Shown: positions 6,565 through 36,338, numbered from the stretch's first letter. The stretch: 64,000 nucleotides of DNA from Candidatus Methanosuratincola mesotaenarum (GCA_038801705.1 JAULTC010000002.1:3072-67071); one strand, 5' to 3'. Translations and numbers: made by a program. The notes: generated by a model not told the origin, from the letters alone.

Positions 6565-6846
6565 ATGGCAAAAGAAGATGAAAATCGGTGCGAGAAGGTG
6601 TCCGAAGAAGGCGAAGAAAGGCAATACTACATGCCTATCCCGGCAGGGACTCCCTACTCAGTGATTGCTGAGGCAGCGAACAGATTCGGGGTCGAGCTGA
6701 CGGAGAAAGAGGTTATCGTTCCAGGGATAGGGGAGAACGAGGCTGCGCCGCTTGCATGGGTGCTCGTCGGAAGCAGGGAAAACCTCGAGAAGGCCCATGA
6801 GTTCATAGTAAAAAAAATGACCGAGATGTTAGAGAAGTTCAGGTAG
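6565..6846 (+). CDS. hypothetical small protein
   Basis: 93-aa ORF convergent with the mcrDC operon. No recognisable motif. Confidence 0.35.
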   Translation: MAKEDENRCEKVSEEGEERQYYMPIPAGTPYSVIAEAANRFGVELTEKEVIVPGIGENEAAPLAWVLVGSRENLEKAHEFIVKKMTEMLEKFR

Positions 6847-7345
6847 GAGCAGTACCACCCATATGGGCGCTTAGCCGCCTGTCCTCTTCCTGCAGCTCGC
6901 TCTGCAGATTCTTTACAATCTTCGAGACCGAGGCGAGGAAGATCTGCTCGACTGCCCTTCCGAGTGAGGCGCCAAGCGCCTCGCAGAGGTCCGAGAACTT
7001 CTCAGAATTCTTGTCCAGGAAAGAGTAGAAAGACTCCGCCATCGCCTGATAAAGATCCTCAGCCAGTTCGGAGTTGATGTGTTCTCCAGAGATCTCCATC
7101 GAGAATTCGAGCGCGTATAGGTCAGGACCGTTTCCTGTCCCAGGGATCCGCCTAACCAGTTCTGAACCTACCAGATTTTCCAGCCGGTCTGCAGCATCCT
7201 TGTCACTGATCATCAGGATATCGGAGAGCTGATCACGCGTCAGGGGACCTCTCCGAAGGGAGAGCAAGACCTCGCGGGATTTTTCGTCCAGCAGGGCACC
7301 ACAGACTTCTGCAAGTTTTTCATCAGGAACTACTAGACACACCAT
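6839..7345 (-). CDS. winged-helix transcriptional regulator (last gene of mcrD-mcrC operon)
   Basis: wHTH-like segment REVLLSLRRGPLTRDQLSDILMISDKDAADRLENLVGSELVRRI. Overlaps the 3' end of the upstream gene, consistent with co-transcription. Confidence 0.5.
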   Translation of the reverse strand: MVCLVVPDEKLAEVCGALLDEKSREVLLSLRRGPLTRDQLSDILMISDKDAADRLENLVGSELVRRIPGTGNGPDLYALEFSMEISGEHINSELAEDLYQAMAESFYSFLDKNSEKFSDLCEALGASLGRAVEQIFLASVSKIVKNLQSELQEEDRRLSAHMGGTAPT

Positions 7346-7793
7346 TCTTATCACCAAGAGACTTCAGGAATGATCTTATCTTCGAAACCATTATCTTTGC
7401 ATCGTCTTCCGTGCGCGGGTACGGAACGGTAACCACAGGGATATTCCTTCGCTTTAATAGGTATCGGATGAATTCGTTGGTCCTACCACAGCTGGCACAA
7501 CCGAAGAGGGCATCGGACTCCTCCACCACGATTGCGGCATCGGCTTCCTCTATCAGCGGACCTATTAGGGCGATCCGACCCCTCACTCCGGACGGGACCT
7601 CAATCGCAGCGTACTTCAGCCCCTTCCTAGGAAATTCTGGGGTGATGTTCATCGGAGGAGAGTCAATCTCTGGTTTCGAGAGGTTCTTTGCGACTTCCTC
7701 GCCGAGGCCCAGGGGCGTGTGTCCCTCGCGCGTTACGAGATCGTAAAGGATCAGGCTGTTGGGTGGGAATATGAAAACTTTAGCCAACATCAT
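7323..7793 (-). CDS. conserved hypothetical protein co-transcribed with mcrC (possible methanogenesis-marker family, unassigned)
   Basis: 156 aa with a GCASCGRTNEF motif. The start overlaps the mcrC stop by 14 nt. Confidence 0.45.
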   Translation of the reverse strand: MMLAKVFIFPPNSLILYDLVTREGHTPLGLGEEVAKNLSKPEIDSPPMNITPEFPRKGLKYAAIEVPSGVRGRIALIGPLIEEADAAIVVEESDALFGCASCGRTNEFIRYLLKRRNIPVVTVPYPRTEDDAKIMVSKIRSFLKSLGDKNGVSSSS

Positions 7794-8448
7794 TCCTCCC
7801 GAGCATCACTTCTTTACTGTCTATCTTGCTTAACCAAAACTTCACTTTTATCACTATCTCGTTCAGCTTTTCCCTCGGGCAGCTGACGCCACGGACGACG
7901 CCAGTAACGACATCCAAAATCACCCCAGCGCACTCGACCTTGCCAGGCGGGGGTCTCACTAGCCTGGTGATTATTCCGACCTTTGCAAAGTCCTCGTAAT
8001 CCACAGGAGCTTCGCAGACCACTATCGCAGGGATGTCAACATACCGGAGGAATGACTTTGCCTTGTGAACCACATGACCGCTGATCCCGCCAAGATGGAT
8101 GAGGGCCAGCTTGAAGCGCTTGATCTGGAAGACTTCCTTCTCGTTTATGCCAGCCATCGATCCTCCAGGGGCCCCCCCATATGGGGAGTCGGGAGGCACG
8201 CCGGAGCCTGACTCGAGTACCAGAACGCTGGTCCGTATCTTCTGCTCCCTGAGCCCGTATGTGATCTCGCAGATGGGCTTGGTTATATGCCGCTTGGAAG
8301 GGGACATCGCAATTGCAACTACCTCAAAGCTCTCAGACTCGGAGATTGTCCCCCGCTGGGCTAGACCACCCCCTTCGCCAATGCCCATCGATTCTCTGCA
8401 GTCGACGATCTGCACATCCCTGCCCATCGAGTCCTGCAATTGGTTCAC
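7780..8448 (-). CDS. mcrC: methyl-coenzyme M reductase operon protein C
   Basis: Strong similarity to remembered McrC sequences: VDCRESMGIGEGGGLAQRGT, HITKPICEITYGLR, TSVLVLESGSGVP, IVVCEAPVDYED, VVTGVVRG. Overlaps mcrD by 4 nt. Confidence 0.8.
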   Translation of the reverse strand: MNQLQDSMGRDVQIVDCRESMGIGEGGGLAQRGTISESESFEVVAIAMSPSKRHITKPICEITYGLREQKIRTSVLVLESGSGVPPDSPYGGAPGGSMAGINEKEVFQIKRFKLALIHLGGISGHVVHKAKSFLRYVDIPAIVVCEAPVDYEDFAKVGIITRLVRPPPGKVECAGVILDVVTGVVRGVSCPREKLNEIVIKVKFWLSKIDSKEVMLGRNDVG

Positions 8449-8771
8449 CTTTCGAGTCCACGTATGTAGTCCTTGACTGTCGGCTTCGGCTTAGTGAATT
8501 GCCCTATACGCATGTCGTAACCATAAGGCATTGTCTGGTCACAGACCGGCCTCAGCTTTGCTATGATCTCTTCGGGAGAGAAACCGGCTTTCACGACAAT
8601 GATGAACCTGCCCGTGAGAGACCCTCCGCCGGAGTACCTGGGACCTTGGGTCAGAACCTCCTCAACCCCCTCGGTATCACGCATTATTGCAGCCAAGTCC
8701 TTTGCCTTCTTGTCGCTCATTAGCCTCCTGGGCATGACCTCGATTTCCCTGAACTCAGCTTGCTGAAACAT
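8445..8771 (-). CDS. mcrD: methyl-coenzyme M reductase operon protein D
   Basis: EIEVMPRRL N-terminus and C-terminal GRFIIVVKAGF...YGYDMRIGQFTKPKPTVKDYIRG, matching the remembered McrD (GRFWILLG...GKFTKTKPTVTDYIKYG). Confidence 0.75.
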   Translation of the reverse strand: MFQQAEFREIEVMPRRLMSDKKAKDLAAIMRDTEGVEEVLTQGPRYSGGGSLTGRFIIVVKAGFSPEEIIAKLRPVCDQTMPYGYDMRIGQFTKPKPTVKDYIRGLER

Positions 8772-8840
8772 TCCGGATCACTAACCTATAAATTAATCAG
8801 GGATTTAATAATCTAGTGCTACCGCTGGAGTGGGATCCCA
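8772..8840. promoter_or_regulatory. divergent promoter region between mcrD and mmp3-like operon
   Basis: 69-bp AT-rich spacer containing TATAAATTAAT and TTTAATAAT elements between oppositely oriented start codons. Confidence 0.4.
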
Positions 8841-10376
8841 TTGAAGGTCACTGTGAATGGAAAGGAGGTCGAGGCTGAAGGAGGGGAAAGCCTAAAATCG
8901 ATGCTGGAGAGGTCTGGTGCGAATGTGAGAAAGGGATGTATCATCGCAGTCAAGAAGATGGTAAAGGATGAGAGCATCGAAACGAACCTCTTTGAGATCA
9001 ATACCACTAAGGGCAGAATGGTGCTCAGGGTGGAGTGCGGAGGGATCCTCGAGAAGTGGAGGAATGCCTGCCACGGCTTTGAGGGGACGGGCGCGAGGTG
9101 GGCAACGAAGGACGCAGTGGTCTTTGGACCGACCATATTCGACGCCCAGCCCTCGATGGATCCAGTCACACTCGGAAGGTACGAAGTGACGCTGAGCCTC
9201 TCAGGGCTCAGCAAGGAGAATACTCACCTAGTCTTCTCAAGGCGGCCGCACTCGGCTTCCTACTATGCGCCCAAGGGTTGTTCTCTCTTGGGGAGAGTGG
9301 TCTACGGCAGGCACCTGATCGGGCTGCTCAGGATGGGAGACAGGATCCTGTCCGTGAAGCCCATAATCGAGTTCAGGGAGCTGGCAAAGTCGTTGATCAG
9401 GGGAGAGATGGGGTCTAGAGTCGAAGAGGGGGACAGAATCTACACCGAGGTCGGGATAGAGCTCGACTACGACTCCCCGGTCTGTGGAGAGCAGGCATAC
9501 AATGTACTGGAGGAAGGCATCCTCAATGTTTCATCAGAGACAGGGAGCTATGTCTGCAATGACGAGCATAGGGTGACCGCGCTCCCAGTAGAGAAGATCG
9601 GGGTTAGGAAGAGAGGAACCTTCACGATAAGGAATTCTGGAGAGAGAGTGGGCGCGGCATACATCTACAAGAAGGATGCGCCGCTAGTCCAGTCGCATAC
9701 GATCGTAGGCAGGATCTTCGACGGGAACGAGCTTGTGGATCTGGCAAAGGAGGGGGATCGCCTGGCGGTAACTGTCAGGCCGCCTAGAATCGATCTGCTT
9801 GGGAAGAGGCTCTCCGAGGCGAGGAGAATCCTTGAGGCATTGGGTGTAAAGCTGGAGGTAGATGGGGAGGGGAGGGATTCGGATGAGGAAGTGATCGTCG
9901 AGAATGAACCGCAGAACTCCCTCGAGATTTACAAGACGGGATCGGTCAGGTGCAAGGTGATTAACCCCCAGAGCATCCTGAAGATCAGGCTATACGAGAA
10001 GGCAGCCCCGAACTCCACCAAGTACTTCAAGGCAGCCACAGGGCTCGAGCGGAAGAAGTTCGGAAAGCTGAGGGTCTATTTCGCAACGCCGAGGATGGAG
10101 ATGGTCCTCTTCAAGGGGATAGACGAGATCGCAAAGGGTCTCAGGCCAGAGAACATGCCCTCTGGGAAGGTGGCTGCAGGCATGATAGGGATCACCAACA
10201 CGGCGAAGAAGTTTGCGGGGATGATTGGCATCAGGATCACTGAAAGCGATAAGTTTGGCCCCACGGCAGAGAGCTTCGACGGGACGAACCTTGTCGGGGA
10301 GGTGGTTGGGGAAATCAACCTCCTCAGGAGGCTTAAGGAGGGGGACGAGATCTACGTCCAGGAGTTGAGAGAATGA
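8841..10376 (+). CDS. methanogenesis marker protein 3-like (UPF0288 family)
   Basis: 511 aa with N-terminal MKVTVNGKEVEAEGGESL (beta-grasp-like start), the size expected for Mmp3. It is the first gene of an operon ending in atwA. Assignment is from memory of the family, not from alignment. Confidence 0.55.
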   Translation: MKVTVNGKEVEAEGGESLKSMLERSGANVRKGCIIAVKKMVKDESIETNLFEINTTKGRMVLRVECGGILEKWRNACHGFEGTGARWATKDAVVFGPTIFDAQPSMDPVTLGRYEVTLSLSGLSKENTHLVFSRRPHSASYYAPKGCSLLGRVVYGRHLIGLLRMGDRILSVKPIIEFRELAKSLIRGEMGSRVEEGDRIYTEVGIELDYDSPVCGEQAYNVLEEGILNVSSETGSYVCNDEHRVTALPVEKIGVRKRGTFTIRNSGERVGAAYIYKKDAPLVQSHTIVGRIFDGNELVDLAKEGDRLAVTVRPPRIDLLGKRLSEARRILEALGVKLEVDGEGRDSDEEVIVENEPQNSLEIYKTGSVRCKVINPQSILKIRLYEKAAPNSTKYFKAATGLERKKFGKLRVYFATPRMEMVLFKGIDEIAKGLRPENMPSGKVAAGMIGITNTAKKFAGMIGIRITESDKFGPTAESFDGTNLVGEVVGEINLLRRLKEGDEIYVQELRE

Positions 10377-10789
10377 TCAAGACCTTTTTAGTGATCCTAT
10401 CTCCGGACTCCAGCTTGACGCCTTCGATGCTTGTCGAGAAGGCTGCCGAGACTGGTGGAATAGACTACAAGGAGACCTGCTACGGCCTGCTCGTGGAGGG
10501 GGAAGAAGAGAAGGTCAGACCTATCCTTGAGGAGATGAGGGCGCTTGACCCAAAGAAGGTCTTCTACAAGCAGAGGGGGTACAGGATCGGCGATGACAGG
10601 ATCTGCAGGGCAAAGAAGGGTGGGGGGCCTAGACCAGGCTACCATATGCTCAGCTCGGAGCGCGAGGTACTGAAGAATGTATCCAGGGCGCTCGAGTTTG
10701 AGGGCGAGGCGCCTCCTGAAAAAGAGAAGACCAGTCTAGAAGTGGAAAAGCTGAAGAGAATAATCGAGGCGGAGAGTGGGAGAGATTAA
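10373..10789 (+). CDS. small methanogenesis-marker-like protein (Mmp6-like size)
   Basis: 138 aa. Start overlaps the upstream stop (ATGA). Position and size are consistent with mmp6. Confidence 0.4.
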   Translation: MIKTFLVILSPDSSLTPSMLVEKAAETGGIDYKETCYGLLVEGEEEKVRPILEEMRALDPKKVFYKQRGYRIGDDRICRAKKGGGPRPGYHMLSSEREVLKNVSRALEFEGEAPPEKEKTSLEVEKLKRIIEAESGRD

Positions 10790-11342
10790 GATATTCGTCG
10801 ACTCCTCTGATGAGTTCGGCGGCCAGCAGTACAAGTACATCGCTGAGAAGAGCGTAGAAGACTTGGGGCTGGGAGGAAGCATCGAATCGATTGGCATGGT
10901 CATAAGGATCGAGGAGCCAGTCTTCATCATAGCAATAAGGTACAAGGAGGTAACAGGCAAGAACACGCTCGGGGAGGCGGCCTACATCGACTCGAGGAAG
11001 AATGGCATCAGGGTAACGCTCAGCAGTGAGATCTTCCTTGGGGACGCACTCAAAGCCCTCTGGTCAAAGTACGGCAGGGACAGGGTCGAGCAGATAGGCA
11101 GGCTCGAGATATTTGTCTCAGGCGGCGATCCGGAAGAAGTAAAGGGGATAAGGCTCAGCGAAAAAGGTTATGACCTGGAGTCTAGGATAAGCGAGCTTGC
11201 AGCAAGGATCATCCCAGAGGGGTTTAGGGTGAGGGGCTCGACAAAAAAGAAAGGGATGCTAACAATAATCGCCTCAGAAGATCCGATAACGGAGGGATGG
11301 AGAAAGCTAGCCGCAAAACTGGAGGAAGAAACCCGTGCTTAA
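10776..11342 (+). CDS. small methanogenesis-marker-like protein (Mmp5-like size)
   Basis: 188 aa. Overlaps its neighbours, so it is operonic. Confidence 0.4.
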   Translation: MGEIKIFVDSSDEFGGQQYKYIAEKSVEDLGLGGSIESIGMVIRIEEPVFIIAIRYKEVTGKNTLGEAAYIDSRKNGIRVTLSSEIFLGDALKALWSKYGRDRVEQIGRLEIFVSGGDPEEVKGIRLSEKGYDLESRISELAARIIPEGFRVRGSTKKKGMLTIIASEDPITEGWRKLAAKLEEETRA

Positions 11343-12237
11343 GTACATGCTCTTCGAAGGCGGCCTGTATAAGCACGAGAGGATACTCGAGTTCCTCGAG
11401 GACGTGGGCGGATTTTTGGTGCAGAAGACGGTTGCTGGCCTGGATCTGATAATGAACTTGGCCCTCCCAGAGGAGGAACTGGAGGGGCTCTCAAAGATAG
11501 TCTCTGATCTGAAGGGCAAGCTTACGTATGCGCCCCTGGTCGGGACAGAGATAGGCGTAGTTGCTCCGACGCTCTCCAGGCACCACCTGCCACACCCTGC
11601 GTGTGATATTGCAGAAAATCTTAGGAGGCACGGGGCGAAGACGAATATAATCGGGCTCTCTAGGGGGGTCGGACAGAAGATAGTCCACACAACGACGAAG
11701 GAAAAGGAGCTGATCGAGGAGCACGACATCGCGGTATTCACCCTAGGTAACTTCGAGACCTGCCTGTTGAAGAAGACCAGGCTTTTCAATGAGATCGAGG
11801 TGCCGGTGATTGTGACAGGGGGCCCCTTGATGAAGGTCATCCAAGGTGCTGAAGCTTACGTCGGCGGTATAGGCAGGTACCCCGAGAGGGCAAGGACAGG
11901 GGAGACGATCGACAGGCTGAGGGAGGTCTCGAGGGTCGCTGGCGAGCTCGTTGAGGAGAGGAGGAGGGAGATGGATCTTGATCCACTAGTCGTCGACCCG
12001 ATCATTGTGAAAGGGGAGATCGAGAGACAAGTACCGGAGTCCACCGAGGCGCTATCCCCAAACCCCGTCACGCTCAAGATAGACGGGGTGAGGGTGAAGC
12101 TCCTATATGACGAATACAAAGATAGGATAGGTGGCGTCGACATCGAGGGCAGAAAGCTCTCCGAGTTCGCTACAATAAAGAGGTCGCTGATGAGGAACTA
12201 CATCCTGGTGAAGGTGCTTCCTAAGTCAATGTTTTGA
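11335..12237 (+). CDS. methanogenesis-marker-like protein (Mmp7- or Mmp17-like, unresolved)
   Basis: 300-aa ORF between the small marker genes and atwA. No catalytic motif recognised. Confidence 0.35.
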   Translation: MLKYMLFEGGLYKHERILEFLEDVGGFLVQKTVAGLDLIMNLALPEEELEGLSKIVSDLKGKLTYAPLVGTEIGVVAPTLSRHHLPHPACDIAENLRRHGAKTNIIGLSRGVGQKIVHTTTKEKELIEEHDIAVFTLGNFETCLLKKTRLFNEIEVPVIVTGGPLMKVIQGAEAYVGGIGRYPERARTGETIDRLREVSRVAGELVEERRREMDLDPLVVDPIIVKGEIERQVPESTEALSPNPVTLKIDGVRVKLLYDEYKDRIGGVDIEGRKLSEFATIKRSLMRNYILVKVLPKSMF

Positions 12238-12249
12238 GGGGGATCCGCT

Positions 12250-13929
12250 TTGTTGTTACAAGTCGTCGGACTCACGAAAAAATATCCTGAGAGCGGCATC
12301 ATTGCCCTCGATGGCATCTCATTCTCAGTGGGAGAGGGAGAGGTGGTAGGCATTGCGGGCAGGAGCGGCGCAGGAAAGAGCACGCTACTGAGGATACTGA
12401 GGGGCGTCGAGGGCTTCGACCAAGGGTTGGTAACCTTCGACGGGCTCAGGATCACGCCATCCTCCCCAAAGGCAGATCTTCTTGAGCTGCAGCGCAAGAC
12501 TGCAATCCAGCTCCAGAGAAGCTTTGGGCTTTGGCCCGACAGCGCAGTCGACAACTTGATAAGGGCACTGAGGTATTCGGACGGGTTCGATGAGACGGTC
12601 CCCGAGGCAGAGGGGGAATACAAGGAGTACTACGATAGGGCGATGGAGATACTCAGGGTAGTCGGGCTGGACAAGAGGGCAGGGCTCTGGTCAGAGGTGC
12701 TCAGCGGAGGCGAGAAGCAGAGGTTAATCATAGCCAGGCAGATAGCAAGGAGACCTAAACTGCTGCTGCTGGATGAGCCGGGCACAATGACTTGCCCTGC
12801 GACAAGAGAAGCATTGCTGGACGCGCTTAAGAGGGTTAACAGGGAGCTCGGCATCGCGATCCTCTTCGCCTCGCACAACCCCCAGACACACAGGTCGCTC
12901 TCGGAAAGGACGATGCTTATTGACAGAGGCAAGGTTTTGTTGGACGGGAGGACAGAGGCTGTACTGGACAGGTTCCTCTCCGGAATCGAGGATCCCATCG
13001 AAAAGACAAGGATCGACGGTCCTGTGGTCCTGAAGATCGAGGGGGCAAGCAAGACCTATAAGCTCATACCTTATGGCACGGTCTTCGAGATGGCCGAGAC
13101 AAGTCTCGAGTTCAGGAGGGGAGAGATCGCAGGGATCATCGGCCCTTCTGGTGCTGGTAAGACAGTCATCCTCAGGATGCTCTCTGGGCTCGAGCTACCG
13201 GACAGGGGGGAGGTGAGGATAACGTACAAGGGGGAGTGGGTGGTCCTAGGCAAGTTTGGCAGGAAGAATATGCTTGCGAGGCGGCGCATCGGGGTCCTCC
13301 ATCAGGAATTTGACCTGCCTCACTTCGCTAGGGTTCTGGATCTCTTTGCCGCAAAGCTCGGACTCAAGGACTATAGCTCACTCGAGGCTGCGCTGAAGAG
13401 GGGGAAAAGGGAAGGGCTCTCAGATGAGGCGATAGACGCACTCAGCAGGGTCTATGAACTCCCAGAAGGCGAGATGAAGGCAAAGCTGACTGAGATGGGG
13501 ATAAGCCAGGACCTGTTAAAGGAGCTGTTCAGATCGAAGGATCCCGAGAAGGCGAGGGACGTGGCGCTTACCGTACTGGAGGCGGTGGGGTTGTCCCCTG
13601 GGATCCTCGACCGGAACGTCTACGAACTCAGCGGGGGTGAGAAGATAAGGGTCGCCTTGGCGCTGTCGCTGATCGCCAGCCCGAAGGTGCTCATTCTCGA
13701 CGAGCCCTTCGGCGACTTGGACCCCATTACGCTGAGGATGGTTGCAAATTCACTGAAGATGGTAAAGAAAAAGCTGAAACCTGCGATCGTGCTAGTTAGC
13801 CACCAGCTCGACCTCCTCGAGGAGGTCTCTGACCGGGCGATACTGATTGTGGACGGCAAGGTTGTGATGGACGGCGACCCGTCTTCGGTGGTAAAAAAGT
13901 TTTTGGAGGAGAGAGAACTTGGAGTTTGA
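12250..13929 (+). CDS. atwA: Mcr component A2, double ABC-ATPase
   Basis: Two complete ABC cassettes: GRSGAGKST / LSGGEKQRLIIARQ / LLLDEPGT and GPSGAGKT / LSGGEKIRVALALS / LILDEPFGDLD. About 560 aa with no transmembrane domain, inside the mmp cluster. TTG start. Confidence 0.75.
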   Translation: MLLQVVGLTKKYPESGIIALDGISFSVGEGEVVGIAGRSGAGKSTLLRILRGVEGFDQGLVTFDGLRITPSSPKADLLELQRKTAIQLQRSFGLWPDSAVDNLIRALRYSDGFDETVPEAEGEYKEYYDRAMEILRVVGLDKRAGLWSEVLSGGEKQRLIIARQIARRPKLLLLDEPGTMTCPATREALLDALKRVNRELGIAILFASHNPQTHRSLSERTMLIDRGKVLLDGRTEAVLDRFLSGIEDPIEKTRIDGPVVLKIEGASKTYKLIPYGTVFEMAETSLEFRRGEIAGIIGPSGAGKTVILRMLSGLELPDRGEVRITYKGEWVVLGKFGRKNMLARRRIGVLHQEFDLPHFARVLDLFAAKLGLKDYSSLEAALKRGKREGLSDEAIDALSRVYELPEGEMKAKLTEMGISQDLLKELFRSKDPEKARDVALTVLEAVGLSPGILDRNVYELSGGEKIRVALALSLIASPKVLILDEPFGDLDPITLRMVANSLKMVKKKLKPAIVLVSHQLDLLEEVSDRAILIVDGKVVMDGDPSSVVKKFLEERELGV

Positions 13930-15817
13930 AGTAATATTCCTTCCAGAAGGGAAGAGGAGCAGGGTACCTGCAAACGCCACGCTTATGTCGGCGGCGCTAA
14001 AGGGGGAAGTGGATCTTGCGGCAATATGCGGAGGCAAGGGTTACTGCGGGAAGTGCATGGTAGAGGTCATCGACGGGAAGGTCTCTCCGCTGACGGACCA
14101 TGAGAGGAAGAGGATCCCAAAGGAGAAGCTTGATAAGAACTACAGGCTTGCCTGCCAGGCGCATGTGGAGGGCAATGTCACAATAAGAGTACCAGACCAG
14201 AGCAGGGTTGGAAAGCAGCGGCTCGTCATCATGGGGAAGGAACCGCCCATACAGATCAGGAGCAATGTCGAGAAGGTCTATCTGGAGCTGGTGCCGCCCT
14301 CGCTCGAGGATCCTACAGCGGACGACGAGAGACTCCTAACCGAGCTCGCGGTGAAAGGCTACCCGAACCTCGTGATCGACTCGCCAACAGCAAGGGATCT
14401 GCCAAGGGTGCTGAGGGATGCGGGTTGGAAGATTACGGCAGTGATCCTGGGAAGGAAGGAAGTCATCGCCATTGAAAAGGGGGACACGAGAGCGAGAAAG
14501 TACGGCCTGGCGGTGGACATAGGCACCACTAAGCTGGCAGTTTTCATAGTTGACCTGAATGATGGCACAATAGTTTACGCAGACGGCACGATGAACCCTC
14601 AGATAAAGTTCGGGGAGGACGTGATCTCCAGGATCAACTATGCGTCGCAAGGCAAGGCGCATCTTGAAGAGATACGGGGCACCATAGTTGAGGGGATAAA
14701 CAGCCTATTGAAATCAGGCGTCTCGGAGGTAGAGATAGGCATGGAGGAGGTTTACGAGGCGGTACTTGTAGGCAACACTGCGATGCACCACCTCTTCGCA
14801 GGGATAGACGTAAAGAGCCTCGGGCTGGCGCCGTATGCCGCAGGGGTTGGCAGGTCCTGCGACAACAAGGCAAGGGATATGGGCCTTGAAATTAACTCCT
14901 CAGGTAATGTGCACCTCCTCCCGAATGTAGCAGGGTTCGTGGGCGCAGACGCAATAGCGGACATGCTCGCATCTAGGCTTCATGAGAAGGAGAGGCTTAC
15001 GCTGCTCATGGACGTGGGGACGAATACAGAGGTCATGCTCGGAGACAAAAACTGCATTTGGGCTTGTTCAACCGCATCAGGCCCGGCCTTCGAGGGAGCG
15101 CACATAAAGTGTGGCATGAGGGCTGCGAGCGGTGCGATCGAGAAGGTTTGGATAGGCAACGACTTGAGCGTATCCTATAAGACCATTGACGACAAGAGGG
15201 CGCGCGGGATATGCGGTTCTGGCATGATTGATGCGGTAGCGGAGATGCTGAAGGCAGGCGTGATAGATACCTCGGGAAGGATACAGCAAGTAGGGGGCAG
15301 CATCAGGGACGGGGAGGGTGGAAGAGAGTTTGTGCTTGTCCCAAAGGAGGAGACTGAGACAGGCAAGGAGGACATAGTAATCACCCAAGATGACGTCAGG
15401 GAGCTCCAGAAGGCCAAAGCGGCAATCTACGCTGGATTCATGACGCTGGTGAGGAAGGGGGGGCTGGACAGAGGATCCCTGTCTGAGATAATAATCGCCG
15501 GCGCATTCGGGAACTACATCGACCCGAAGAACGCAAGGATAATAGGGATGATACCCGAGCTCCCGCTAGAGAGGATCTCATTTACGGGCAACACGGCTGG
15601 CTCAGGCGCGAGGCTTTGCCTGAAGTCGCTTGACGTGAGGCTTGAAGCCCAGACCGTTGCCTCAAGGATAAAATATATAGAACTTGCAGCACAGCCTATC
15701 TTTGAGGAAGAGTACATTAATGCGATGTACATGCCGAACAGCCGGTTAGAAGACTTCCCGGAAACCATGAGGGAAGTGAAGGCGCCGAGGGTAGTGAGGC
15801 GTTATGTCAGAAGATGA
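13919..15817 (+). CDS. RACo-type ATP-dependent reductive activase homologue (2Fe-2S ferredoxin + ASKHA ATPase)
   Basis: N-terminal plant-type ferredoxin: VIFLPEG...AICGGKGYCGKCMV...RLACQ. C-terminal ASKHA/actin-fold segments: GLAVDIGTTK, DVGTNTE, IAGAFG. 632 aa. The TTG start overlaps the atwA stop. Confidence 0.65.
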   Translation: MEFEVIFLPEGKRSRVPANATLMSAALKGEVDLAAICGGKGYCGKCMVEVIDGKVSPLTDHERKRIPKEKLDKNYRLACQAHVEGNVTIRVPDQSRVGKQRLVIMGKEPPIQIRSNVEKVYLELVPPSLEDPTADDERLLTELAVKGYPNLVIDSPTARDLPRVLRDAGWKITAVILGRKEVIAIEKGDTRARKYGLAVDIGTTKLAVFIVDLNDGTIVYADGTMNPQIKFGEDVISRINYASQGKAHLEEIRGTIVEGINSLLKSGVSEVEIGMEEVYEAVLVGNTAMHHLFAGIDVKSLGLAPYAAGVGRSCDNKARDMGLEINSSGNVHLLPNVAGFVGADAIADMLASRLHEKERLTLLMDVGTNTEVMLGDKNCIWACSTASGPAFEGAHIKCGMRAASGAIEKVWIGNDLSVSYKTIDDKRARGICGSGMIDAVAEMLKAGVIDTSGRIQQVGGSIRDGEGGREFVLVPKEETETGKEDIVITQDDVRELQKAKAAIYAGFMTLVRKGGLDRGSLSEIIIAGAFGNYIDPKNARIIGMIPELPLERISFTGNTAGSGARLCLKSLDVRLEAQTVASRIKYIELAAQPIFEEEYINAMYMPNSRLEDFPETMREVKAPRVVRRYVRR

Positions 15818-16349
15818 GTTCGTGAAGGCGCTGAAAGGGATCGAAGGTATAATCTCCGTAAAGGAATTGACTGAGGAGGAGAAGAGTGAAGTCCTGAAGC
15901 TCGAGGAGCAGGCTGAAAAAAGCGTCCTAATGGGCCTGTGCAGGGGAGTAAACATAGGGGTCAGGGAGACCCTAAACAAGGGAAGGGTCTTCGCTTGCGC
16001 TACCGACCGGTGCTTCAAGTGGCCACAGTCCTCCTACATAAAGATCGTATGTGGTGAGGAAGTGATAGGCGAGGATGTGAATGAGCAGCCGAGGCTCGAG
16101 AGGCTGAAGTCGGAAGGGAACATCGTAGCAGGCACACTGGTCTTTTATAGGGAAAAGATGCGGCTCTTGAAGGACAGGAGGGGCGACACAATGGTGCACA
16201 TACTGCCGCTAGAGATCGGGGAGATCATGGGGAAGAAGGCCATTGCCGGGAGCCCATCTCCGCCCGCAGACATGTACCTGAAAAGCAGGATGGGCATAGA
16301 CACAGGGAACAGTGCACTTGGGACGGTTTTGATTGGGATTGACGCGTGA
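15804..16349 (+). CDS. hypothetical protein (last gene of the activation operon)
   Basis: 181 aa. Start overlaps the RACo-like stop by 14 nt. Contains CRGVNIGV...CATDRCFKW. No known motif. Confidence 0.45.
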   Translation: MSEDEFVKALKGIEGIISVKELTEEEKSEVLKLEEQAEKSVLMGLCRGVNIGVRETLNKGRVFACATDRCFKWPQSSYIKIVCGEEVIGEDVNEQPRLERLKSEGNIVAGTLVFYREKMRLLKDRRGDTMVHILPLEIGEIMGKKAIAGSPSPPADMYLKSRMGIDTGNSALGTVLIGIDA

Positions 16350-26273: not shown

Positions 26274-27515
26274 ATGGTCAGGATAGCGCAGATATCATGC
26301 GGATCAGAGTATAGCGGGATTCAGGCTGAGATCGAGAAGGCAGCGAAGATTGTTGGCGGACAGATATTCGTGCCAGAGGTCGATGTCTCGGAGATCAGGA
26401 CTATCGAGGACGAGCTCGGTTTCCATGTGGCTAGTCCGGGCCTGAGAGTGATGATGGCGAGGGCAAAGGCGATAGTAGAAGGAATAGTAGACGCGGACGG
26501 AGTGTTCATTGCGACCTGCTTCAGGTGCGCCGAGGGTGCGCTTGTGAGGAGTATCGTCAGGAGGTACATCCAGAGCCAGACGAAGATCCCAGTCGTGACC
26601 TACTCGTTCACAGAGAGGACCAAGGCAGGCGCCCTCCTGCTGCGTATGGAGGCACTGGTGAACATAATAGACAAGAAGCCGCTCTTTGCCAGGACGAAGC
26701 AGGAGGGAATAACTGCTGGGATCGACTCGGGCTCGACCACGACAAAGGCCGTTGTGATGAAGGATAACGAGATCATAGGCCAAGGGTGGCTCCCAACCAC
26801 CGGCGTCCTTGAGTCGGGCATGACTGCACTCAACCAGGCGCTCAAGGAAGCAGGCATTGAGGAGTCGCGGCTCGAGGGGATAGGCGTCACAGGCTACGGC
26901 AGGACGATACTGAAAGAGAAGTACAAGGCACAGCTGGCAATGGAAGAGGTCTCAACCTGCTCGAAGGGAGCACTCTTCATGACTGACAAGCAGAGGGGGG
27001 ACGCGACCGTGATAGACATCGGAGGGATGGACAACAAGGCGGTGACGCTTTATGACAGCATCCCTGACAGCTTCACGGTCGGGGGGGTCTGCGCAGGCGC
27101 CTCCGGGAGGTTCCTCGAGACGACGGCAAAAAGGCTCGGCGTACCGATAGAGCAGTTCGGCGATCTTGCGATGAAAGGGAACTGGAAGGATGCGCCGATG
27201 AATGCCTACTGCATCGTTTTCGGGCTGCAGGACCTCGTTGCAGCTCTTGCCGGGGGTGCCAAGCCGGAGGACGCTGCCGCTGCCGCATGTCACAGCGTAG
27301 CCGAGCAGGTCTTCGAGCAGCAGCTTCAGGAGATAGACATAAGGTACCCGATAATCCAAGTTGGTTCAACCGCACTTGTCAAGGGGCTGGTGAAAGCACT
27401 CTCCGAGATACTGAGCGTGGAGATGATAGTTCCAAAAAAGCCTAACCTGATCGGGTGTGTCGGTGCAGCGGTAATGGTATCTGGGATGAAGGAATTGGAG
27501 GAGGCTGGGAAATAA
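26274..27515 (+). CDS. BadF/BadG/BcrA/BcrD-type ASKHA ATPase (methanogenesis marker 15-like)
   Basis: [14 protein letters not shown] phosphate-1 motif, IDIGGMDNK and GGVCAG. About 410 aa. Sits immediately upstream of ycaO-tfuA. Confidence 0.6.
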
Positions 27516-27530
27516 GCGATCGAGGATGCG

Positions 27531-28763
27531 ATGCACATGAACCTGAGGCCAGTCCCTAAGGGATATACAGCGGGCACGCACAGGGAGATCCCGCCGGCTA
27601 AGACGCTGGAACTGATCAACAGGATCAAGGAGAAGGCAGGGATCACCAGGGTTGCGGAGATAACAGGGCTGGACCGTATCGGGATACCAATATTCACCTC
27701 CATAAGACCGATGGCATCGCAGGGGGCAGTCACGGTGTACACTGGAAAGGGCTATTCCCCAGAGGAAGCAGAGGTATCGGCAATAATGGAGGGAATAGAG
27801 AGGTTTTCGGCGGAGCCGCGGGGCTTGGGACTTGTGAGGGGAGCGTACAGGGATCTCAGCGGGCATAGGGATGTGTTGGACCCAAACAGGCTGATCTTGC
27901 CGCGTAGGTATCTGACTTCCGAGGAGATAGAATGGGCTGAAGGGTATTCGCTCACGCGTAGATCGGGCGTGCTCGTACCAGCGGAGGCTGTGTTCCACCC
28001 CTACAGCAGGCATAACCAGCTTTTCCGCACCAACACCAACGGTCTCGCGGTCGGCAATGCGCTGGAGGAAGCAATAGTACACGGGCTGATGGAGGTGATC
28101 GAGAGGGACGCATGGTCCCTCTTCGAGGCTGGGAGGGTAAGAGGTAGGGATCTCGAGCTCACGGAATGCGAGAGCCCGATGGTGAGGATGATTTTGGAAA
28201 AGCTCGATAATGCAGGGATCGAAGTCTATGCAAAGGACATCACCTCGGACGTGGGGATACCAACGGTGGCGGTTGCCATCGACGACGAGCTGACGAGGGA
28301 TCCCGCACTGCTCTCGCTCGGGGTGGGGACCCACCTGGTGGCAGAGATCGCTGCCGTGAGGGCGCTGACCGAAGCAGTCCAAAGCAGGCTGACCACCATC
28401 CACGGAACCAGGGAGGACACCGTGAAGGCCGAGTTCGCCAGGAGGATAGGATACGAGAGGATGAAGAAGATAAACAGGCGATGGTTTTCATCCAGCCCAG
28501 AAAGGGTCAACCTAGGCGAGCTGAGATCCTTTTCGGGGAAGGACTTCCTTGAGGACATCAGATACACCCTCAATAGGCTGGACCGCGCAGGGCTGCAGGA
28601 GGCGATAGTCATCGACCTCACGCGGGTGGAGACAGGCATACCGGCGGTCCGGGTGATAGTCCCAGGGCTCGAGGTCTATGCGCTAGACAAGGAGAGGGCC
28701 GGGAGGAGGCTCTCTGCGCATCTAGGGGCAACGAACCCCAGCGGCGAGTCTTCCCAGTACTAG
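27531..28763 (+). CDS. ycaO: YcaO-domain protein (McrA glycine thioamidation)
   Basis: YcaO ATP-binding core: SAIMEGIERFSA, NGLAVGNALEEAIVHGLMEVIERDAW. About 410 aa, followed by tfuA. Confidence 0.8.
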   Translation: MHMNLRPVPKGYTAGTHREIPPAKTLELINRIKEKAGITRVAEITGLDRIGIPIFTSIRPMASQGAVTVYTGKGYSPEEAEVSAIMEGIERFSAEPRGLGLVRGAYRDLSGHRDVLDPNRLILPRRYLTSEEIEWAEGYSLTRRSGVLVPAEAVFHPYSRHNQLFRTNTNGLAVGNALEEAIVHGLMEVIERDAWSLFEAGRVRGRDLELTECESPMVRMILEKLDNAGIEVYAKDITSDVGIPTVAVAIDDELTRDPALLSLGVGTHLVAEIAAVRALTEAVQSRLTTIHGTREDTVKAEFARRIGYERMKKINRRWFSSSPERVNLGELRSFSGKDFLEDIRYTLNRLDRAGLQEAIVIDLTRVETGIPAVRVIVPGLEVYALDKERAGRRLSAHLGATNPSGESSQY

Positions 28764-28781
28764 CAACCTGCGGTGCATGAG

Positions 28782-29444
28782 ATGAAGGTTGTCATTTTTC
28801 TCGGACCGAGCCTGCCGCATGAGGAGGCACAGAGGATCCTCAGCGACGCAGAATACCGCCCGCCAGCAGCTAGGGGAGATATCATGAGGGCTGCAGCTGG
28901 GGAGGCGGAGGTGATAGCCCTGATCGATGGTGTGTTCTACCAGCAGGCAGCGGTCTCTCACCGCGAGATCCTCCATGCGATAGGCAAGAGGATAAAGGTC
29001 TTTGGCGGTTCGAGCATGGGCGCACTCAGGGCATCTGAGCTGGATGTCTACGGGATGATCGGCATCGGCACGGTTTACGAATGGTACAAAGCAGGCAAGA
29101 TAAGGTCTGACGATGAAGTTGCACTGGCATTCCATCCGGGGGACTTCAGACCGCTCTCAGAACCCCTCGTGAACATCAGAGCCACGCTGGAGCAGGCACT
29201 GGCTTCTGGCGGCATAACCCAGCAGGAACATGACGCAGTCCTCACTGCAGCGAAGGATGTCCCATTCCAACTGAGGAATTACCCCAGGATACTCCAGAGG
29301 GCTGTCCACGGAGGGATCAGTGGCACGAGGGCAGGGGAGATACTAGACCTCATCAAACGGATGCGGGTAGACCTGAAGAGAGAAGACGCAACCAAAGTTC
29401 TAGAGAGGATCAAGGAAATCCAGAACCATTCTAATGTACAATAA
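28782..29444 (+). CDS. tfuA: TfuA-like protein
   Basis: MKVVIFLGPSL...ARGDI...IALIDGVF...GGSSMGALRA TfuA pattern. The ORF opens with GTG at 28773. Confidence 0.8.
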   Translation: MKVVIFLGPSLPHEEAQRILSDAEYRPPAARGDIMRAAAGEAEVIALIDGVFYQQAAVSHREILHAIGKRIKVFGGSSMGALRASELDVYGMIGIGTVYEWYKAGKIRSDDEVALAFHPGDFRPLSEPLVNIRATLEQALASGGITQQEHDAVLTAAKDVPFQLRNYPRILQRAVHGGISGTRAGEILDLIKRMRVDLKREDATKVLERIKEIQNHSNVQ

Positions 29445-29573: not shown

Positions 29574-31199
29574 ATGGACGTTCCTTTCATCGAGATTAGT
29601 GGTGTGTCGAAATCTTTCAACGGTAACAAAGTCCTGGAAGACATCTCGCTCACAATAGAAGAAGGGGAGCGGGTAGGCATCATTGGGAAGAGCGGATCCG
29701 GAAAGACTGTGCTGCTGTCAATGCTGAAGGGCATAAAGGAGTACAGACCTGATTCCGGTCGGATAGTCTACAATGTGGCGATATGCGAGCACTGCCAGAC
29801 TATTGAGGGTCCCAGCTGGGCAAACAAGAAATGCCCTACCTGCTGTCCGCACTGCGAGAAAGAGATGGAGATGGCAGAGGTCGACATATACGGCGAAGAC
29901 CCAAAGACCAGATGGCTGAAGCGGCGTATAGCCATAATGTTCCAGAGGACCTTCGCGCTTTATGGCAGCCTTACTGTCTATGAGAACCTTGTCGAAGCCC
30001 TCAACAAGGTATCCTCCGAGGATGCCAGTAAGAAGGCGCTCGAGATAGCCAAGGACATTGGGCTGGCAAACAGGCTCCTCCATGCGGCGAGGGATCTGAG
30101 CGGCGGCGAGAAGCAGAGAGTAGTTCTTGGTAGGCAGCTAGCAATAAAGCCGATACTGCTACTTGCAGACGAGCCAACAGGGACACTGGATCCGCTCAAT
30201 GCCGGCATGGTCCAAAAGATAATCAAGAGGGAAACCGGACCGGGCAAAAGCACACTTCTAGTGACTTCGCACCTCCCCGGAGCAATAGAAGAACTCTGCA
30301 ATAGGGCGATACTGCTCGAAGGAGGCAAGATCAGCGCGATGGGCGATCCGAAAGAGGTCACAGCCAAGTTCCTCTCAAGGCTTGCCCCAGAGGAGATCCC
30401 GAAGCCGCCACAGCTTGGGGGTGTCATCCTGAGGGTCAAGGATCTGAAGAAGTACTACTTCTCAATTGACAAGGGAGTGGTCAAGGCACTGGACGGGGTG
30501 AGCTTCGAGGTCAAGGAGAGGCAGATCTTCGGAATAATAGGGCTCAGCGGCGCCGGCAAGACGACGCTCTCGAGGGCGATAGTGGGAGTGACCCAGCCCA
30601 CGTCTGGCATAATCGAGCTCAAGATCGGGGATGAGTGGGTCAATATGCTTGAGCCTGGTCCGATGGGCAGGGGCAGGGCAACTCCATTCATAGGGCTCCT
30701 GCACCAAGAGTATGCACTTTACCCTCATAGGACAGTGCAGGAGAACCTGACCGATGCTATAGGACTTGAGCTTCCGGACGAGTTTGCCAAGTTTAAGGCA
30801 CAGAGCGTGCTTATGGCTGCAGGGTTTGACGAATCCAATATTGAGAGGACGCTCTCGAAGTACCCTGAAGAGCTTAGCGAGGGTGAGAGGCACAGGGTGG
30901 CTCTCGCGCAGGTGCTGATAAAGGAGCCGATCATAGTGCTCCTAGACGAGCCCTCGGGTACGATGGACATTATAACCCAACAGGACGTCGCAAAGTCGAT
31001 AAAGAATGCCAGGACTGAACTCGGTCAGACATTCATAATTATATCGCATGACATGGAGTTCGTTGATAACACATGCGAGGAGGCGATACTGATGAGAAAT
31101 GGCAAAGTGGTCAGCAGTGGAAAGCCTTCAGAGCTGGCTAAAGAGCTGACACAAGAGGAGAAGGACGAGTTAATGAACTCCAAAAACAGACTCCCTTGA
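29574..31199 (+). CDS. second component-A2-like double ABC-ATPase with inserted Cys4 zinc ribbon
   Basis: Two ABC cassettes: GKSGSGKT / LSGGEKQRVVLGRQ / LLADEPTG and GLSGAGKT / LSEGERHRVALAQ / VLLDEPSG. No transmembrane domain. A CEHC...CPTCCPHC insertion lies after Walker A of cassette 1. Confidence 0.7.
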   Translation: MDVPFIEISGVSKSFNGNKVLEDISLTIEEGERVGIIGKSGSGKTVLLSMLKGIKEYRPDSGRIVYNVAICEHCQTIEGPSWANKKCPTCCPHCEKEMEMAEVDIYGEDPKTRWLKRRIAIMFQRTFALYGSLTVYENLVEALNKVSSEDASKKALEIAKDIGLANRLLHAARDLSGGEKQRVVLGRQLAIKPILLLADEPTGTLDPLNAGMVQKIIKRETGPGKSTLLVTSHLPGAIEELCNRAILLEGGKISAMGDPKEVTAKFLSRLAPEEIPKPPQLGGVILRVKDLKKYYFSIDKGVVKALDGVSFEVKERQIFGIIGLSGAGKTTLSRAIVGVTQPTSGIIELKIGDEWVNMLEPGPMGRGRATPFIGLLHQEYALYPHRTVQENLTDAIGLELPDEFAKFKAQSVLMAAGFDESNIERTLSKYPEELSEGERHRVALAQVLIKEPIIVLLDEPSGTMDIITQQDVAKSIKNARTELGQTFIIISHDMEFVDNTCEEAILMRNGKVVSSGKPSELAKELTQEEKDELMNSKNRLP

Positions 31200-32099
31200 G
31201 AGATCCATGAAGATCCTGCGATCGCCGCCCAGTCCCACGCTTATCTTTTTTGTATCATTGAACTTCCCCACGACGCATGCGGAGAAGCCTGCCTCGCGTA
31301 GCCTCGGCACCAAGGATTCATCGTCAGACGCAAATATGAACCCCATTGCAGGATATGATATGAACCACTCCGAAATCGCGTTCCCATCAGGCCTGGGTAT
31401 CTTTCCGGCGTCGACCTCGGCCCCGACTGAGCTGGCTTCGCAGAGCATTGCCAAGCTCCCAAGAATGCCAGGGGCGCTTATGTCCCTTGAGGCCTTGACC
31501 AGGCCCAGCTCTACGGCGGAGATTATCGAGTCGAGCATTTTACCGAGCTCAGAGCTGCCCTTTTTCAAGGTGCTGTCGAAGCACTTCACCCACCCTTTGA
31601 CGCCGAAGGACCCATCAAGGTCGACCGCCATCACAACATCATCACCAGGACGGGCAGTGTTGCCTTTGGCTACCCTCTTGGCAATCCCTACAACGGCTGC
31701 ATCGATAGCCTCGTAAGAAGAGTCCGGATGGGTGTGCCCCTTTAGGAGCTTGAGGCCGTACTTGTCCAGCCCTGCCTTTATGCCCTGGGCCATCTTCAGC
31801 CTGCTCTCCCTGCTTCCAGACATGACGTTCACGTAGCCCATAGGCCTTGCCCCTTTAACAACTACGTCATTCACGTTTACGAGCACAGAGTAGTATCCGG
31901 CGAACCATGGATCCGACTTGACCAAGTCTTCGGTTATCCCGTCTGTGGAAACGACAATGTTGATCCCGCCCATATCAATAAATCCAGCGTCGTCGTACTC
32001 GTGCTCACCCAGAATTGCGGTGATCTCACCTATCTCGATCTTCCTCTTCAGGCCCTTGAAATTCTTCGCAATCTCGATAATGTGCGAGAGGCTCTCCAA
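31170..32099 (-). CDS. PurM/AIR-synthase-related protein (methanogenesis marker 2-like / HypE-like)
   Basis: PurM-fold motifs: VSTDGITE, DVVVKGARP, and a C-terminal ATP-grasp-like half. 309 aa. Confidence 0.55.
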   Translation of the reverse strand: MESLSHIIEIAKNFKGLKRKIEIGEITAILGEHEYDDAGFIDMGGINIVVSTDGITEDLVKSDPWFAGYYSVLVNVNDVVVKGARPMGYVNVMSGSRESRLKMAQGIKAGLDKYGLKLLKGHTHPDSSYEAIDAAVVGIAKRVAKGNTARPGDDVVMAVDLDGSFGVKGWVKCFDSTLKKGSSELGKMLDSIISAVELGLVKASRDISAPGILGSLAMLCEASSVGAEVDAGKIPRPDGNAISEWFISYPAMGFIFASDDESLVPRLREAGFSACVVGKFNDTKKISVGLGGDRRIFMDLSRESVFGVH

Positions 32100-33876: not shown

Positions 33877-35547
33877 TTAGCGGCTCGGTATGATGAGGGA
33901 CCTCTCGCCCGCAGGCATGAACTCTCTCAGTGCGCCCTTGCCGAAGCAGAGCCTCGGGTGCGTGAAGTCGAACTTCAGGTCCTTGTCGGCGAAGGCGATC
34001 TTTATCAGCGGGTTGGTCGTCCACGCATCGCTCCTTCCGCTGTGTGCCGCCTGTACAATGCCTGTATATGCCGACTGGTGGCCTACGTTCAGGGCGTAGT
34101 TCGGATAGTTCACACCCCTCAGGTTGAAGGGCAGACCCTCGTCGCTCCTGTATGAGAAGCTGTTCGCCGAACCGCACTGGTCCTGCTGGTCGTAGCCGTA
34201 GAATCCGAGCCTGCCCATCTCCTCCTTATGGAGAAGCTGGCTCAGGTACCATCCGTTGATGCCTGCTGTGCAGTTGCCAGTAGCAAGCGAGACCGCAACA
34301 CCTGCGCCTGCGGCCACGACAGCGGCCCTCTGCGAACCACCGAAGTGCGTCTCCATCAGTGCAGGGTAGCGCTCGTACTGCTCGAGACCGTAGAGTGTAA
34401 CCTCGGTCGCAACATCCTTTATGAGATCCCAGCTTGGCTTCGCCTTTCCGAATCCGCCGTACTTCTTCTTGACATAGTCCGCGCCGTAGTAGCAGTAGTC
34501 GTCCAGGACATTGTCGGTGTAGGTGCAGGTCGCGTACTGCGTAAAGCCCACACCTCCGGACATGTAGCTGCCGAACCAGAACTGGTCGTACAGCACTGCG
34601 CCCATCGAGATGGCCTCTAGCGCAACCCATGTTGGGTCCTCTGGCTTAACCCTCGACGCCTGGCACATGTCTGCAATGTATCCGAGCGGCACACCGCCTG
34701 GTTCATTCGGGCCTCTTGCGCGCCTCCATGGCATCAGAGTGCCCATCTCAATGACCTCGGCATGTTTCGCAGCGAATGCGAACTCGCCGATTGCGGCCTC
34801 TCCAGCCATCAGCTTGTAGGCATTGACCATCGCCATCGAGATCTGCATCGCAGACCACCTCGACATCGTTCCTCCGTCGCAGGTCATTGCGACTATGGTC
34901 GGCATGCGGAGGACCTGGTAGATTTTCTTGCCTACGGCAGCCTTCAGCTGTGCGGCCTGGTCAGCCGGGAACTCCTTGTTTATGTTAATTAGGAAGCGCT
35001 TGTCTATCTCGTCCGCCAGCTCATCGTCGCCGGTGAATACCTTAACGTATGAGTCGGCGACTAGACCAGGATGGGTCTCGACCATATGCTCTTGGACAAC
35101 GGCAGCGCCTGGCAACGCGTGGTTCAGCACCTCGAGGTAGTGGTTGACTGTCTCTGGGGTAACCTCCTTCCCGAGCCGCTTCTGTATGACCATGTGGGCG
35201 GCATCGAGACCAACGATCACGGTCCGCCTGATGTCATGCCACATCTGCTGCATTGCAGCATTGTTGATGAAGTGTAGGTCGTCGCCCTCGCAGTAGATAT
35301 CAGTCTGCGAAAGACGGTACGGCATCAGAACCCTCTGTCCGAGGGGGATGCCGCCAAGGTGCATGTCCGGGTTGTAGAACGGGATGCCCCGCTCCTTCGC
35401 CAGCTTCGTACCCCACTCGACGAACTCCTGCTTCCTCTTGGACTGCTTCCAGCCGCCATATATGTAGAACTGGGTATACTTCTCTTCTGGAGACTCCTTG
35501 AATTTCTTCCGGAGTGCTTCCAAGAACATCTTCTTTTCAGTTGCCAT
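33877..35547 (-). CDS. mcrA: methyl-coenzyme M reductase alpha subunit
   Basis: 556 aa, collinear with canonical McrA: [79 protein letters not shown]. Confidence 0.95.
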
Positions 35548-35560
35548 CTATATCTCCTCC

Positions 35561-36337: not shown

Positions 36338-36338
36338 T

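Follow-up and report, generated by a model that had tools for sequence, protein, structure and literature searches.

A 64,000-nucleotide (nt) stretch of the Candidatus Methanosuratincola mesotaenarum genome (GCA_038801705.1, JAULTC010000002.1:3072-67071; hereafter the window) carries a single gene for a RACo-type protein, a relative of RACo, the reductive activator of corrinoid proteins. It lies in an operon on the + strand in the order mmp3-mmp6-mmp17-mmp7-A2like-RACo-orf181, together with genes of the Mcr activation machinery, and we describe here its identity, its surroundings and the clients that it is likely to serve. The gene and the domains of its product, which comprises 632 amino acids (aa), are located as follows.

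13919-15817, + strand: RACo/RACE-type reductive activase gene, 632 aa, TTG start; open reading frame (ORF), Pfam domains and match to 3ZYY
13919-13929, + strand: overlap of the A2-like stop with the RACo start, 11 nt
13949-14167, + strand: N-terminal plant-type [2Fe-2S] ferredoxin domain, aa 11-83; Fer2 PF00111, E 1.2e-11
14240-14491, + strand: RACo linker domain, aa 108-191; RACo_linker PF17650, E 1.6e-21
14501-14989, + strand: RACo middle domain with DIGTTK, aa 195-357; Raco_middle PF17651, E 1.8e-53
14996-15763, + strand: RACo C-terminal ASKHA ATPase domain, aa 360-615; RACo_C_ter PF14574, E 4.5e-93

The four-domain RACo architecture recovered with Pfam was far beyond what chance would produce, and the protein was colinear with residues 3-629 of crystallised RACo (3ZYY; E 5e-122, 37% identity). 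Within the ferredoxin domain, Cys37, 43, 46 and 79, which form the motif C37-x5-C43-x2-C46...C79 (CGGKGYCGKCMV...ACQ), matched cysteines in RACo and in all homologues. The ASKHA nucleotide-binding motifs D200-IGTTK, D365-VGTNTE and I526-AGAFG (AGAFG at 527-531) were also present and aligned with those of RACo, with DVGTNTE, SGPAFEG and IAGAFG all held by the RACo_C_ter domain. The TTG codon is the first possible start past the preceding in-frame stop, sits 11 nt within the upstream A2-like ORF (which ends in TGA at 13929) and has a GGAGG about 10 nt to its 5′ side; residue 2 of the product paired with residue 3 of 3ZYY (N-terminus EFEVIFLPEGK), and this alignment from 3ZYY residue 3 supports the TTG as the start. 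An initial annotation of the window had described a 632-aa ORF whose TTG start overlaps the upstream stop and is translationally coupled to the preceding gene, with an N-terminal 2Fe-2S ferredoxin and a C-terminal ASKHA ATPase in the domain order of RACo. The 11-nt overlap, the Pfam domains and the 3ZYY alignment confirmed each of these points, including the motifs that it quoted.

The protein was 100% identical to a protein of Candidatus Methanosuratus sp. and shared 85-87% identity with its counterparts in Methanosuratincola verstraetei and M. petrocarbonis, and a GC content of 0.52-0.56 over 7-18 kb of the window gave no compositional sign of foreign origin. One 438-aa relative with 64% identity (P0115), encoded on a 29-kb ENA contig, contained only Raco_middle and RACo_C_ter, without Fer2 or the linker; this could reflect a split gene, an artefact of gene calling or a variant lacking the ferredoxin domain.

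The identity of the gene immediately upstream had to be revised, as the window holds two genes related to component A2.

12250-13929, + strand: A2-like double-ABC ATPase, 559 aa; component A2 paralogue without the zinc-binding motif
29574-31199, + strand: true component A2 (atwA); TIGR03269, 718 bits in one piece, cut-off 517

The initial annotation had taken the first of these for atwA and had accordingly spoken of an A2 operon. This assignment was rejected: the ORF matched TIGR03269 at 303 bits in three fragments, under the cut-off of 517, shared 30% identity with the true A2 of the window and lacked the zinc motif. It carries two ABC nucleotide-binding domains (NBDs; PF00005 twice), and the stretch corresponding to the zinc motif of the true A2 (CEHC...CPTCCPHC) fell into alignment gaps, with no CxxC-x12-CxxC cysteine pairs. 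The true A2 lies 13.8 kb downstream, behind mmp15-ycaO-tfuA and outside the mmp3...orf181 operon. Many archaea encode an A2 homologue of the MA_3967 type, with both NBDs and without the zinc-binding motif (preprint 10.64898/2026.03.18.712670), and the ORF at 12250-13929 fits this description in its two NBDs, absent CxxC...CxxC and sub-cut-off score, the two being likened by description. Compared with A2 homologues of this type elsewhere, a RACo gene follows the A2-like gene only in Methanomethylicia. That the mmp3-6-17-7 operon holds a zinc-motif-less paralogue and not A2 itself prompts one to ask which ATPase the activation complex of these genomes uses.

The remaining genes of the operon, and the short cluster divergent from it, are packed as follows.

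8841-10376, + strand: mmp3, TIGR03268 above cut-off
10373-10789, + strand: mmp6, TIGR03272 above cut-off
10776-11342, + strand: mmp17, TIGR03291 above cut-off
11335-12237, + strand: mmp7, TIGR03274 above cut-off
15804-16349, + strand: orf181, last operon gene, with a 14-nt overlap with the RACo stop
7323-7793, - strand: mmp5, divergent from the operon
7780-8448, - strand: mcrC, divergent from the operon
8445-8771, - strand: short mcrD-like gene, divergent from the operon
8772-8840, no strand assigned: AT-rich divergent intergenic region (TATAAATTAAT); all other gaps from 7323 to 16349 are 12 nt or shorter

The three divergent genes were identified from their matches to TIGR03271, TIGR03264 and PF02505; the mcrD-like gene is truncated, encoding 108 aa that match only the C-terminal part of MCR_D. 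Five of the six operon junctions overlap (by 4-14 nt) and the sixth is a 12-nt gap. The intergenic region at 8772-8840 is likely the promoter region for both the mmp3...orf181 operon and the mcrD-like/mcrC/mmp5 genes, as judged from the layout of the genes. A scan for bacterial sigma-70 promoters and terminators, which is not applicable to an archaeon, returned counts matching shuffled sequence, and the window gave no hits in Rfam or tRNA scans. Directly 3′ of mmp5 lies a 172-aa ORF (6839-7357, - strand) with a weak ArsR-type helix-turn-helix match (PF01022, E 6e-5), whose position is kept in three other loci (L001, L003 and L008) and which may be a regulator of this island.

Further downstream, the window contains a second Mcr-maturation block, ahead of the true A2, and the Mcr structural genes.

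26274-27515: mmp15
27531-28763: ycaO
28773-29444: tfuA
33877-37673, - strand: mcrB-mcrG-mcrA, standing alone

An mmp2-like, AIR-synthase-related gene (31170-32099), convergent with the true A2, scored under the TIGR03267 cut-off, and mcrC and the mcrD-like gene, which adjoin the mmp operon, lie 25 kb from mcrBGA.

We also examined how far the association of the A2-like and RACo genes extends. A scan of genome contigs yielded 22 Methanomethylicia loci with a RACo gene (62-87% identity), and the A2like-RACo order was kept in all 21 that extend upstream of it. Loci that extend far enough displayed the full arrangement, with mmp5-mcrC-mcrDlike divergent from mmp3-mmp6-mmp17-mmp7-A2like-RACo, and those retrieved by exact-protein look-up agreed. 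We measured 28 A2like-RACo junctions, a set in which a genome may be represented by more than one record. The overlap was 11 nt at 20 junctions and 8 or 14 nt at four, one junction had a 1-nt gap and one an unresolved start; the other two, from a distant 'Verstraetearchaeota' lineage (L008/L060), had a 50-nt gap within the same gene order (RACo 54%, A2-like 50% identity). The neighbourhood is syntenic over about 20 kb in Methanomethylicia genomes, including trpB, TIM and NAD synthase genes, and the conservation of the junction within the group therefore says little on function.

Outside this group, A2-like homologues (44-50% identity) occurred without RACo in four lineages (loci including L009, L010, L014 and L063). 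Those of Nezhaarchaeales have the mcrD-like gene divergent from the A2-like gene, followed by a convergent mcrA; a Bathyarchaeota metagenome-assembled genome (MAG) has the mcrD-like gene divergent from A2-like-A2-ycaO, adjoining mtr; in Archaeoglobales the A2-like gene adjoins DUF2099, DUF2114 and mtr; and the Methanobacteriaceae copy precedes genes for a flavin reductase, Usp and rubredoxins. Linkage of RACo to mmp or mcr genes was thus conserved only within Methanomethylicia (including L008/L060) and not across Mcr-encoding lineages. The adjacency reported by the initial annotation held throughout Methanomethylicia and was absent from the other lineages examined for the A2-like gene. Apart from RACo, the placement of the A2-like paralogue itself recurred: it stands divergently beside a short mcrD-like gene in Nezhaarchaeales (L063) and the Bathyarchaeota MAG, and near the mtr operon and DUF2114 in Bathyarchaeota (L009) and Archaeoglobales (L014, also with DUF2099). 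This hints at a wider island of 'marker genes' around the paralogue, which looks more tightly tied to Mcr than RACo does.

To place the protein among its relatives, we built a neighbour-joining (NJ) tree, in which the Methanomethylicia RACo proteins and three subgroups (the P0063, P0071 and P0078 types) formed one clade with 100/100 bootstrap support. The sister of this clade was a large group of Bathyarchaeia type; bacterial RACo fell outside both, and the tree contained no long branch. Members of the same clade stand beside corrinoid methyltransferase genes. At one P0078-type locus (L065), a gene for methylcobalamin:CoM methyltransferase (MT2; NF004889, 336 bits, cut-off 244) is found 8 nt 5′ of RACo, with another URO-D gene just 3′ of it, an MT2-RACo-MT2 arrangement shared by L066 and L067, whose second URO-D gene is likewise just 3′ of RACo; a fourth locus (L123) has one MT2 about 1.6 kb 5′ of RACo. 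Genes for MtmB and corrinoid proteins were found 3-5 kb from RACo in L065, L067 and L123. At the P0071-type locus L062 (10001-15674), a RACo with 52% identity has behind it a convergent MtaA gene (NF040654, 460 bits, cut-off 400) and then mcrG-mcrA. Upstream of that RACo are an mmp2-like gene and a BtuF/FecCD-type ABC transporter, and the locus represents an independent proximity of RACo and mcr, with MtaA between them, in another Mcr-encoding lineage.

Among more distant relatives, a corrinoid protein, MT2 or MtmB-like gene was present in 33 of the 73 Bathyarchaeia-type metagenome loci, with a corrinoid protein within 3 kb in 27 and an MT2 within 3 kb in 25, and none of the 80 metagenome loci contained an A2-like gene (at least 40% identity), an Mmp gene or an Mcr gene. 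Some RACo homologues occurred in housekeeping contexts (L012/L013). In Culexarchaeia, the Mcr-less sister class, RamA-like genes are reported to adjoin mtrH-mttB-mttC or CODH genes (10.1101/2022.04.06.487207). At the residue level, alignment found no features peculiar to the RACo copies behind the A2-like gene; the only indel specific to the clade spans a single column. The conserved basic tail at the C-terminus (KAPxxV+xY) was considered as a mark of a new function and rejected, as it marks the whole clade of the NJ tree, including members beside MtaA. With neither a long branch nor a clade-specific indel beyond one column, the sequences give no sign of altered function in the Methanomethylicia proteins.

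The distribution of orf181, the gene 3′ of RACo and translationally coupled to it, provided further evidence. The protein had no Pfam or NCBIfam match, and a word-based search returned 11 homologues, all from Methanomethylicia. A profile search of 1.84 billion representatives yielded 195 clusters at E<=1e-3, of which 116 passed E<=1e-10, and tblastn located full-length homologues in 11 metagenome loci (31-42% identity, E 1e-18 to 1e-37). A homologue lies directly 3′ of RACo in three loci (L068, L069 and L076), and in two of them (L068 and L069) the RACo-orf181 pair has no Mmp or A2-like gene upstream, the upstream genes of L069 encoding a PAPS-reductase/Fer4 protein and a Lon_C protein. In L067 the homologue lies behind the MT2 gene downstream of RACo, and in seven Bathyarchaeia-type loci of non-methanogen type (L082, L087, L089, L096, L099, L080 and L111) it adjoins URO-D, RACo, MttB or B12-binding genes. 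These contexts indicate that RACo and orf181 form a module that travels with corrinoid methyltransferase genes and that is appended to the mmp/A2-like operon only in Methanomethylicia. The family, about 190 aa long with the conserved motifs GSPSPPAD and LMGLxxGxNxGVREAL, gave a confident structure model in which a nitroreductase/BluB/CblC-like fold is weakly suggested. It is an undescribed small family that accompanies RACo and corrinoid methyltransferases in Thermoproteota, and orf181 may be a missing partner, such as an electron donor or a cofactor handler.

Collectively, our findings support the idea that the product is a reductive activator of corrinoid proteins of the RACE type (RACo-like), whose clients are likely the corrinoid proteins of methanol and methylamine metabolism; we assign this reading a probability of roughly 0.78. 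The initial annotation had named service to corrinoid methyltransferases as its fallback, and it is this fallback that the evidence favours. The occurrence of the A2-like gene without RACo in four other lineages also counts for it. Methanogenesis from methanol or monomethylamine runs via corrinoid proteins (the Mta and Mtm systems). The cultured M. petrocarbonis LWZ-6, whose locus (L030) has the same operon and a RACo 87% identical, forms methane from methanol and monomethylamine with H2 (PMC12244365). Within the RACE-type class, reviewed in PMC7317905, the known activases target separate corrinoid proteins that belong to methyltransferase systems.

Homology to RACo suggests a mechanism: the N-terminal [2Fe-2S] domain would accept an electron supplied by a cellular donor, binding of the Co(II) form of the corrinoid protein would fall to the ASKHA domain, and ATP binding and hydrolysis would power the uphill transfer that restores Co(I). 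In this methanogen, which reduces methyl compounds in an H2-dependent manner, the clients would probably be MtaC, MtmC and their relatives in methanol and methylamine methyltransferase systems, which supply coenzyme M, and through it Mcr, with methyl groups. In Methanomethylicia the RACo-orf181 module has come to lie behind mmp3-mmp6-mmp17-mmp7-A2like and so is co-transcribed with the Mcr activation machinery, and we infer that this provides co-expressed repair for two oxidation-prone, super-reduced tetrapyrroles of one pathway, the Co(I)-corrinoid and Ni(I)-F430. If the reading is correct, the gene supplies the expected corrinoid activase of the recently cultured methyl-reducing Thermoproteota methanogens, and that activase is of the bacterial RACo (2Fe-2S) type and not of the Methanosarcina RamA type. 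Its only unusual feature would then be co-transcription with Mcr activation genes, which suggests co-regulated repair of the oxygen-sensitive Co(I) and Ni(I) states.

Several observations weigh against a corrinoid client. Neither the 64-kb window nor the 10 kb around RACo in the Methanomethylicia loci contained any corrinoid methyltransferase or corrinoid protein gene. Should other activases adjoin the methyltransferase genes, the copy described here could act on a different client. The protein also scored under the curated cut-offs of both AcsV and RamA. Its top NCBIfam model, the AcsV corrinoid activation protein (NF040756), matched over the full length (5-614 vs 2-632) at 496.3 bits and missed the cut-off of 800, and RamA (TIGR04270) reached 154 bits against a cut-off of 500, restricted to aa 195-603; therefore, no equivalog assignment is possible. 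In the RACo:CoFeSP complex, Ser398 of RACo ligates Co(II) (PMC4934906); the corresponding residue here is Ala386, with Ser387 next to it. This position is non-discriminating, since the shifted serine is common to all archaeal homologues with or without Mcr (CS[TC]ASGPAFEG, with ACSAGPAFEG in the bacterial proteins). Finally, the A2-like/RACo stop-start overlap kept across the group would also fit a physical partnership. Gene overlap as a sign of a complex was nevertheless rejected: overlaps are general in this operon, five of its six junctions having one, and an overlap alone is not specific for a complex.

The proposal of the initial annotation, an electron-delivery ATPase for Mcr, takes the form that the Methanomethylicia RACo, alone or with the A2-like ATPase, feeds ATP-energised electrons to the surface FeS cluster at Mmp7/Mmp17 (the McrC chain). 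RACo would then be the physiological electron-input module of Mcr activation, with a part in taking F430 from Ni(II) to Ni(I), and a corrinoid-type activase would also serve Ni-F430. In every Methanomethylicia locus that extends upstream, co-transcription and translational coupling tie the gene to mmp3-mmp6-mmp17-mmp7-A2like, corrinoid genes are absent nearby, and RACo lies near mcrG-mcrA again in the differently arranged L062. In addition, the distal cluster of the M. maripaludis activation complex is surface-exposed at Mmp7/Mmp17, and its physiological electron donor is not known (PMC12176620). Against this, that complex activates Mcr without a RACo-type protein (PMC12176620), and the adjacency is limited to one lineage in which the whole region is syntenic, with the A2-like gene lacking RACo in the four others. 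Orthologues of the same clade adjoin MtaA/MtbA, MtmB and corrinoid proteins, and loci devoid of Mcr and Mmp genes commonly contain homologues with 50% identity. Neither accelerated evolution nor a distinguishing insertion was seen, and the gene between RACo and mcrG in L062 encodes MtaA, which itself uses a corrinoid protein substrate. Support for a Mcr-directed role amounts to lineage-restricted gene order and nothing beyond; the phylogeny, which groups the protein (100/100, NJ) with RACo copies beside MtaA/MtbA-type methyltransferases, MtmB and corrinoid proteins, runs counter to it, and we regard this role as unsupported and very unlikely. A literature search found no paper that links RACo, DUF4445 or COG3894 with mmp or A2 genes, and the description of LWZ-6 in IJSEM makes no mention of activases.

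Another explanation would have one enzyme re-reduce both corrinoid proteins and Mcr-bound F430, directly or via the Mmp FeS chain, with the operon fusion reflecting shared repair. It draws on the corrinoid evidence and the operon evidence alike, and the Nature paper likens ATP-driven corrinoid activation to Mcr activation. We consider it highly improbable, as no positive evidence for the second client was obtained, and partner recognition by RACo relies on specific protein contacts and on the Co-Ser ligand (PMC4934906), which argues for client specificity.

In a further alternative, the client would be a McrA-modifying, B12-dependent radical SAM methylase (Mmp10 or MgmA type), making the protein an activase for an 'Mcr-associated cofactor' and not a catabolic one. 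Such a role would suit an island of Mcr maturation and activation genes, with mmp genes, ycaO-tfuA, A2 and mcrBGA in the window and a B12-binding radical SAM gene in the corresponding Nezhaarchaeales island (L063), but it is extremely improbable given that no such gene was present among the window ORFs scanned, that known RACE-type activases act on separate methyltransferase corrinoid proteins (PMC7317905) and that the contexts of the relatives are catabolic methyltransferases and not radical SAM genes.

Several known systems provide comparisons. RACo of Carboxydothermus hydrogenoformans, which activates the corrinoid iron-sulfur protein CoFeSP (3ZYY; CoFeSP complex 4C1N), has the same four-domain order over nearly the same length (632 aa here vs 631), and the C-x5-C-x2-C...C [2Fe-2S] motif and the ASKHA motifs are common to both. 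The proteins differ in that identity is 37%, that Ser398 is replaced by Ala with Ser at +1, and that the basic C-terminal tail is absent from RACo. Moreover, the present gene does not lie in a CODH/ACS (acs) cluster. Since published Methanomethylicia MAGs are without the Wood-Ljungdahl pathway (PMC10033731), CoFeSP is an unlikely client. AcsV (NF040756) likewise matches over the whole length, but at 496 bits vs 800 and in a different genomic context.

RamA, the reductive activase for the methylamine corrinoid proteins of Methanosarcina, probably does the same job, an ATP-dependent Co(II) to Co(I) reduction for methylotrophic methyltransferases. Its middle and ASKHA domains are homologous to aa 195-603, whereas the N-terminal part of the present protein, with the [2Fe-2S] Fer2 domain, is unmatched; RamA carries C-terminal [4Fe-4S] clusters. 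The Mcr activation complex of M. maripaludis, the only one characterised, consists of McrC, Mmp7, Mmp17, Mmp3, A2 and DUF2098, with no RACo-type subunit (PMC12176620). The genes for Mmp3, Mmp17 and Mmp7 share the operon described here, with mcrC divergent alongside. The ATPase of that complex is the ABC-type A2 and not an ASKHA protein, and the ABC gene of the present operon is the zinc-motif-less paralogue. That complex and RACo have in common an ATP-driven, very-low-potential reduction of a tetrapyrrole metal.

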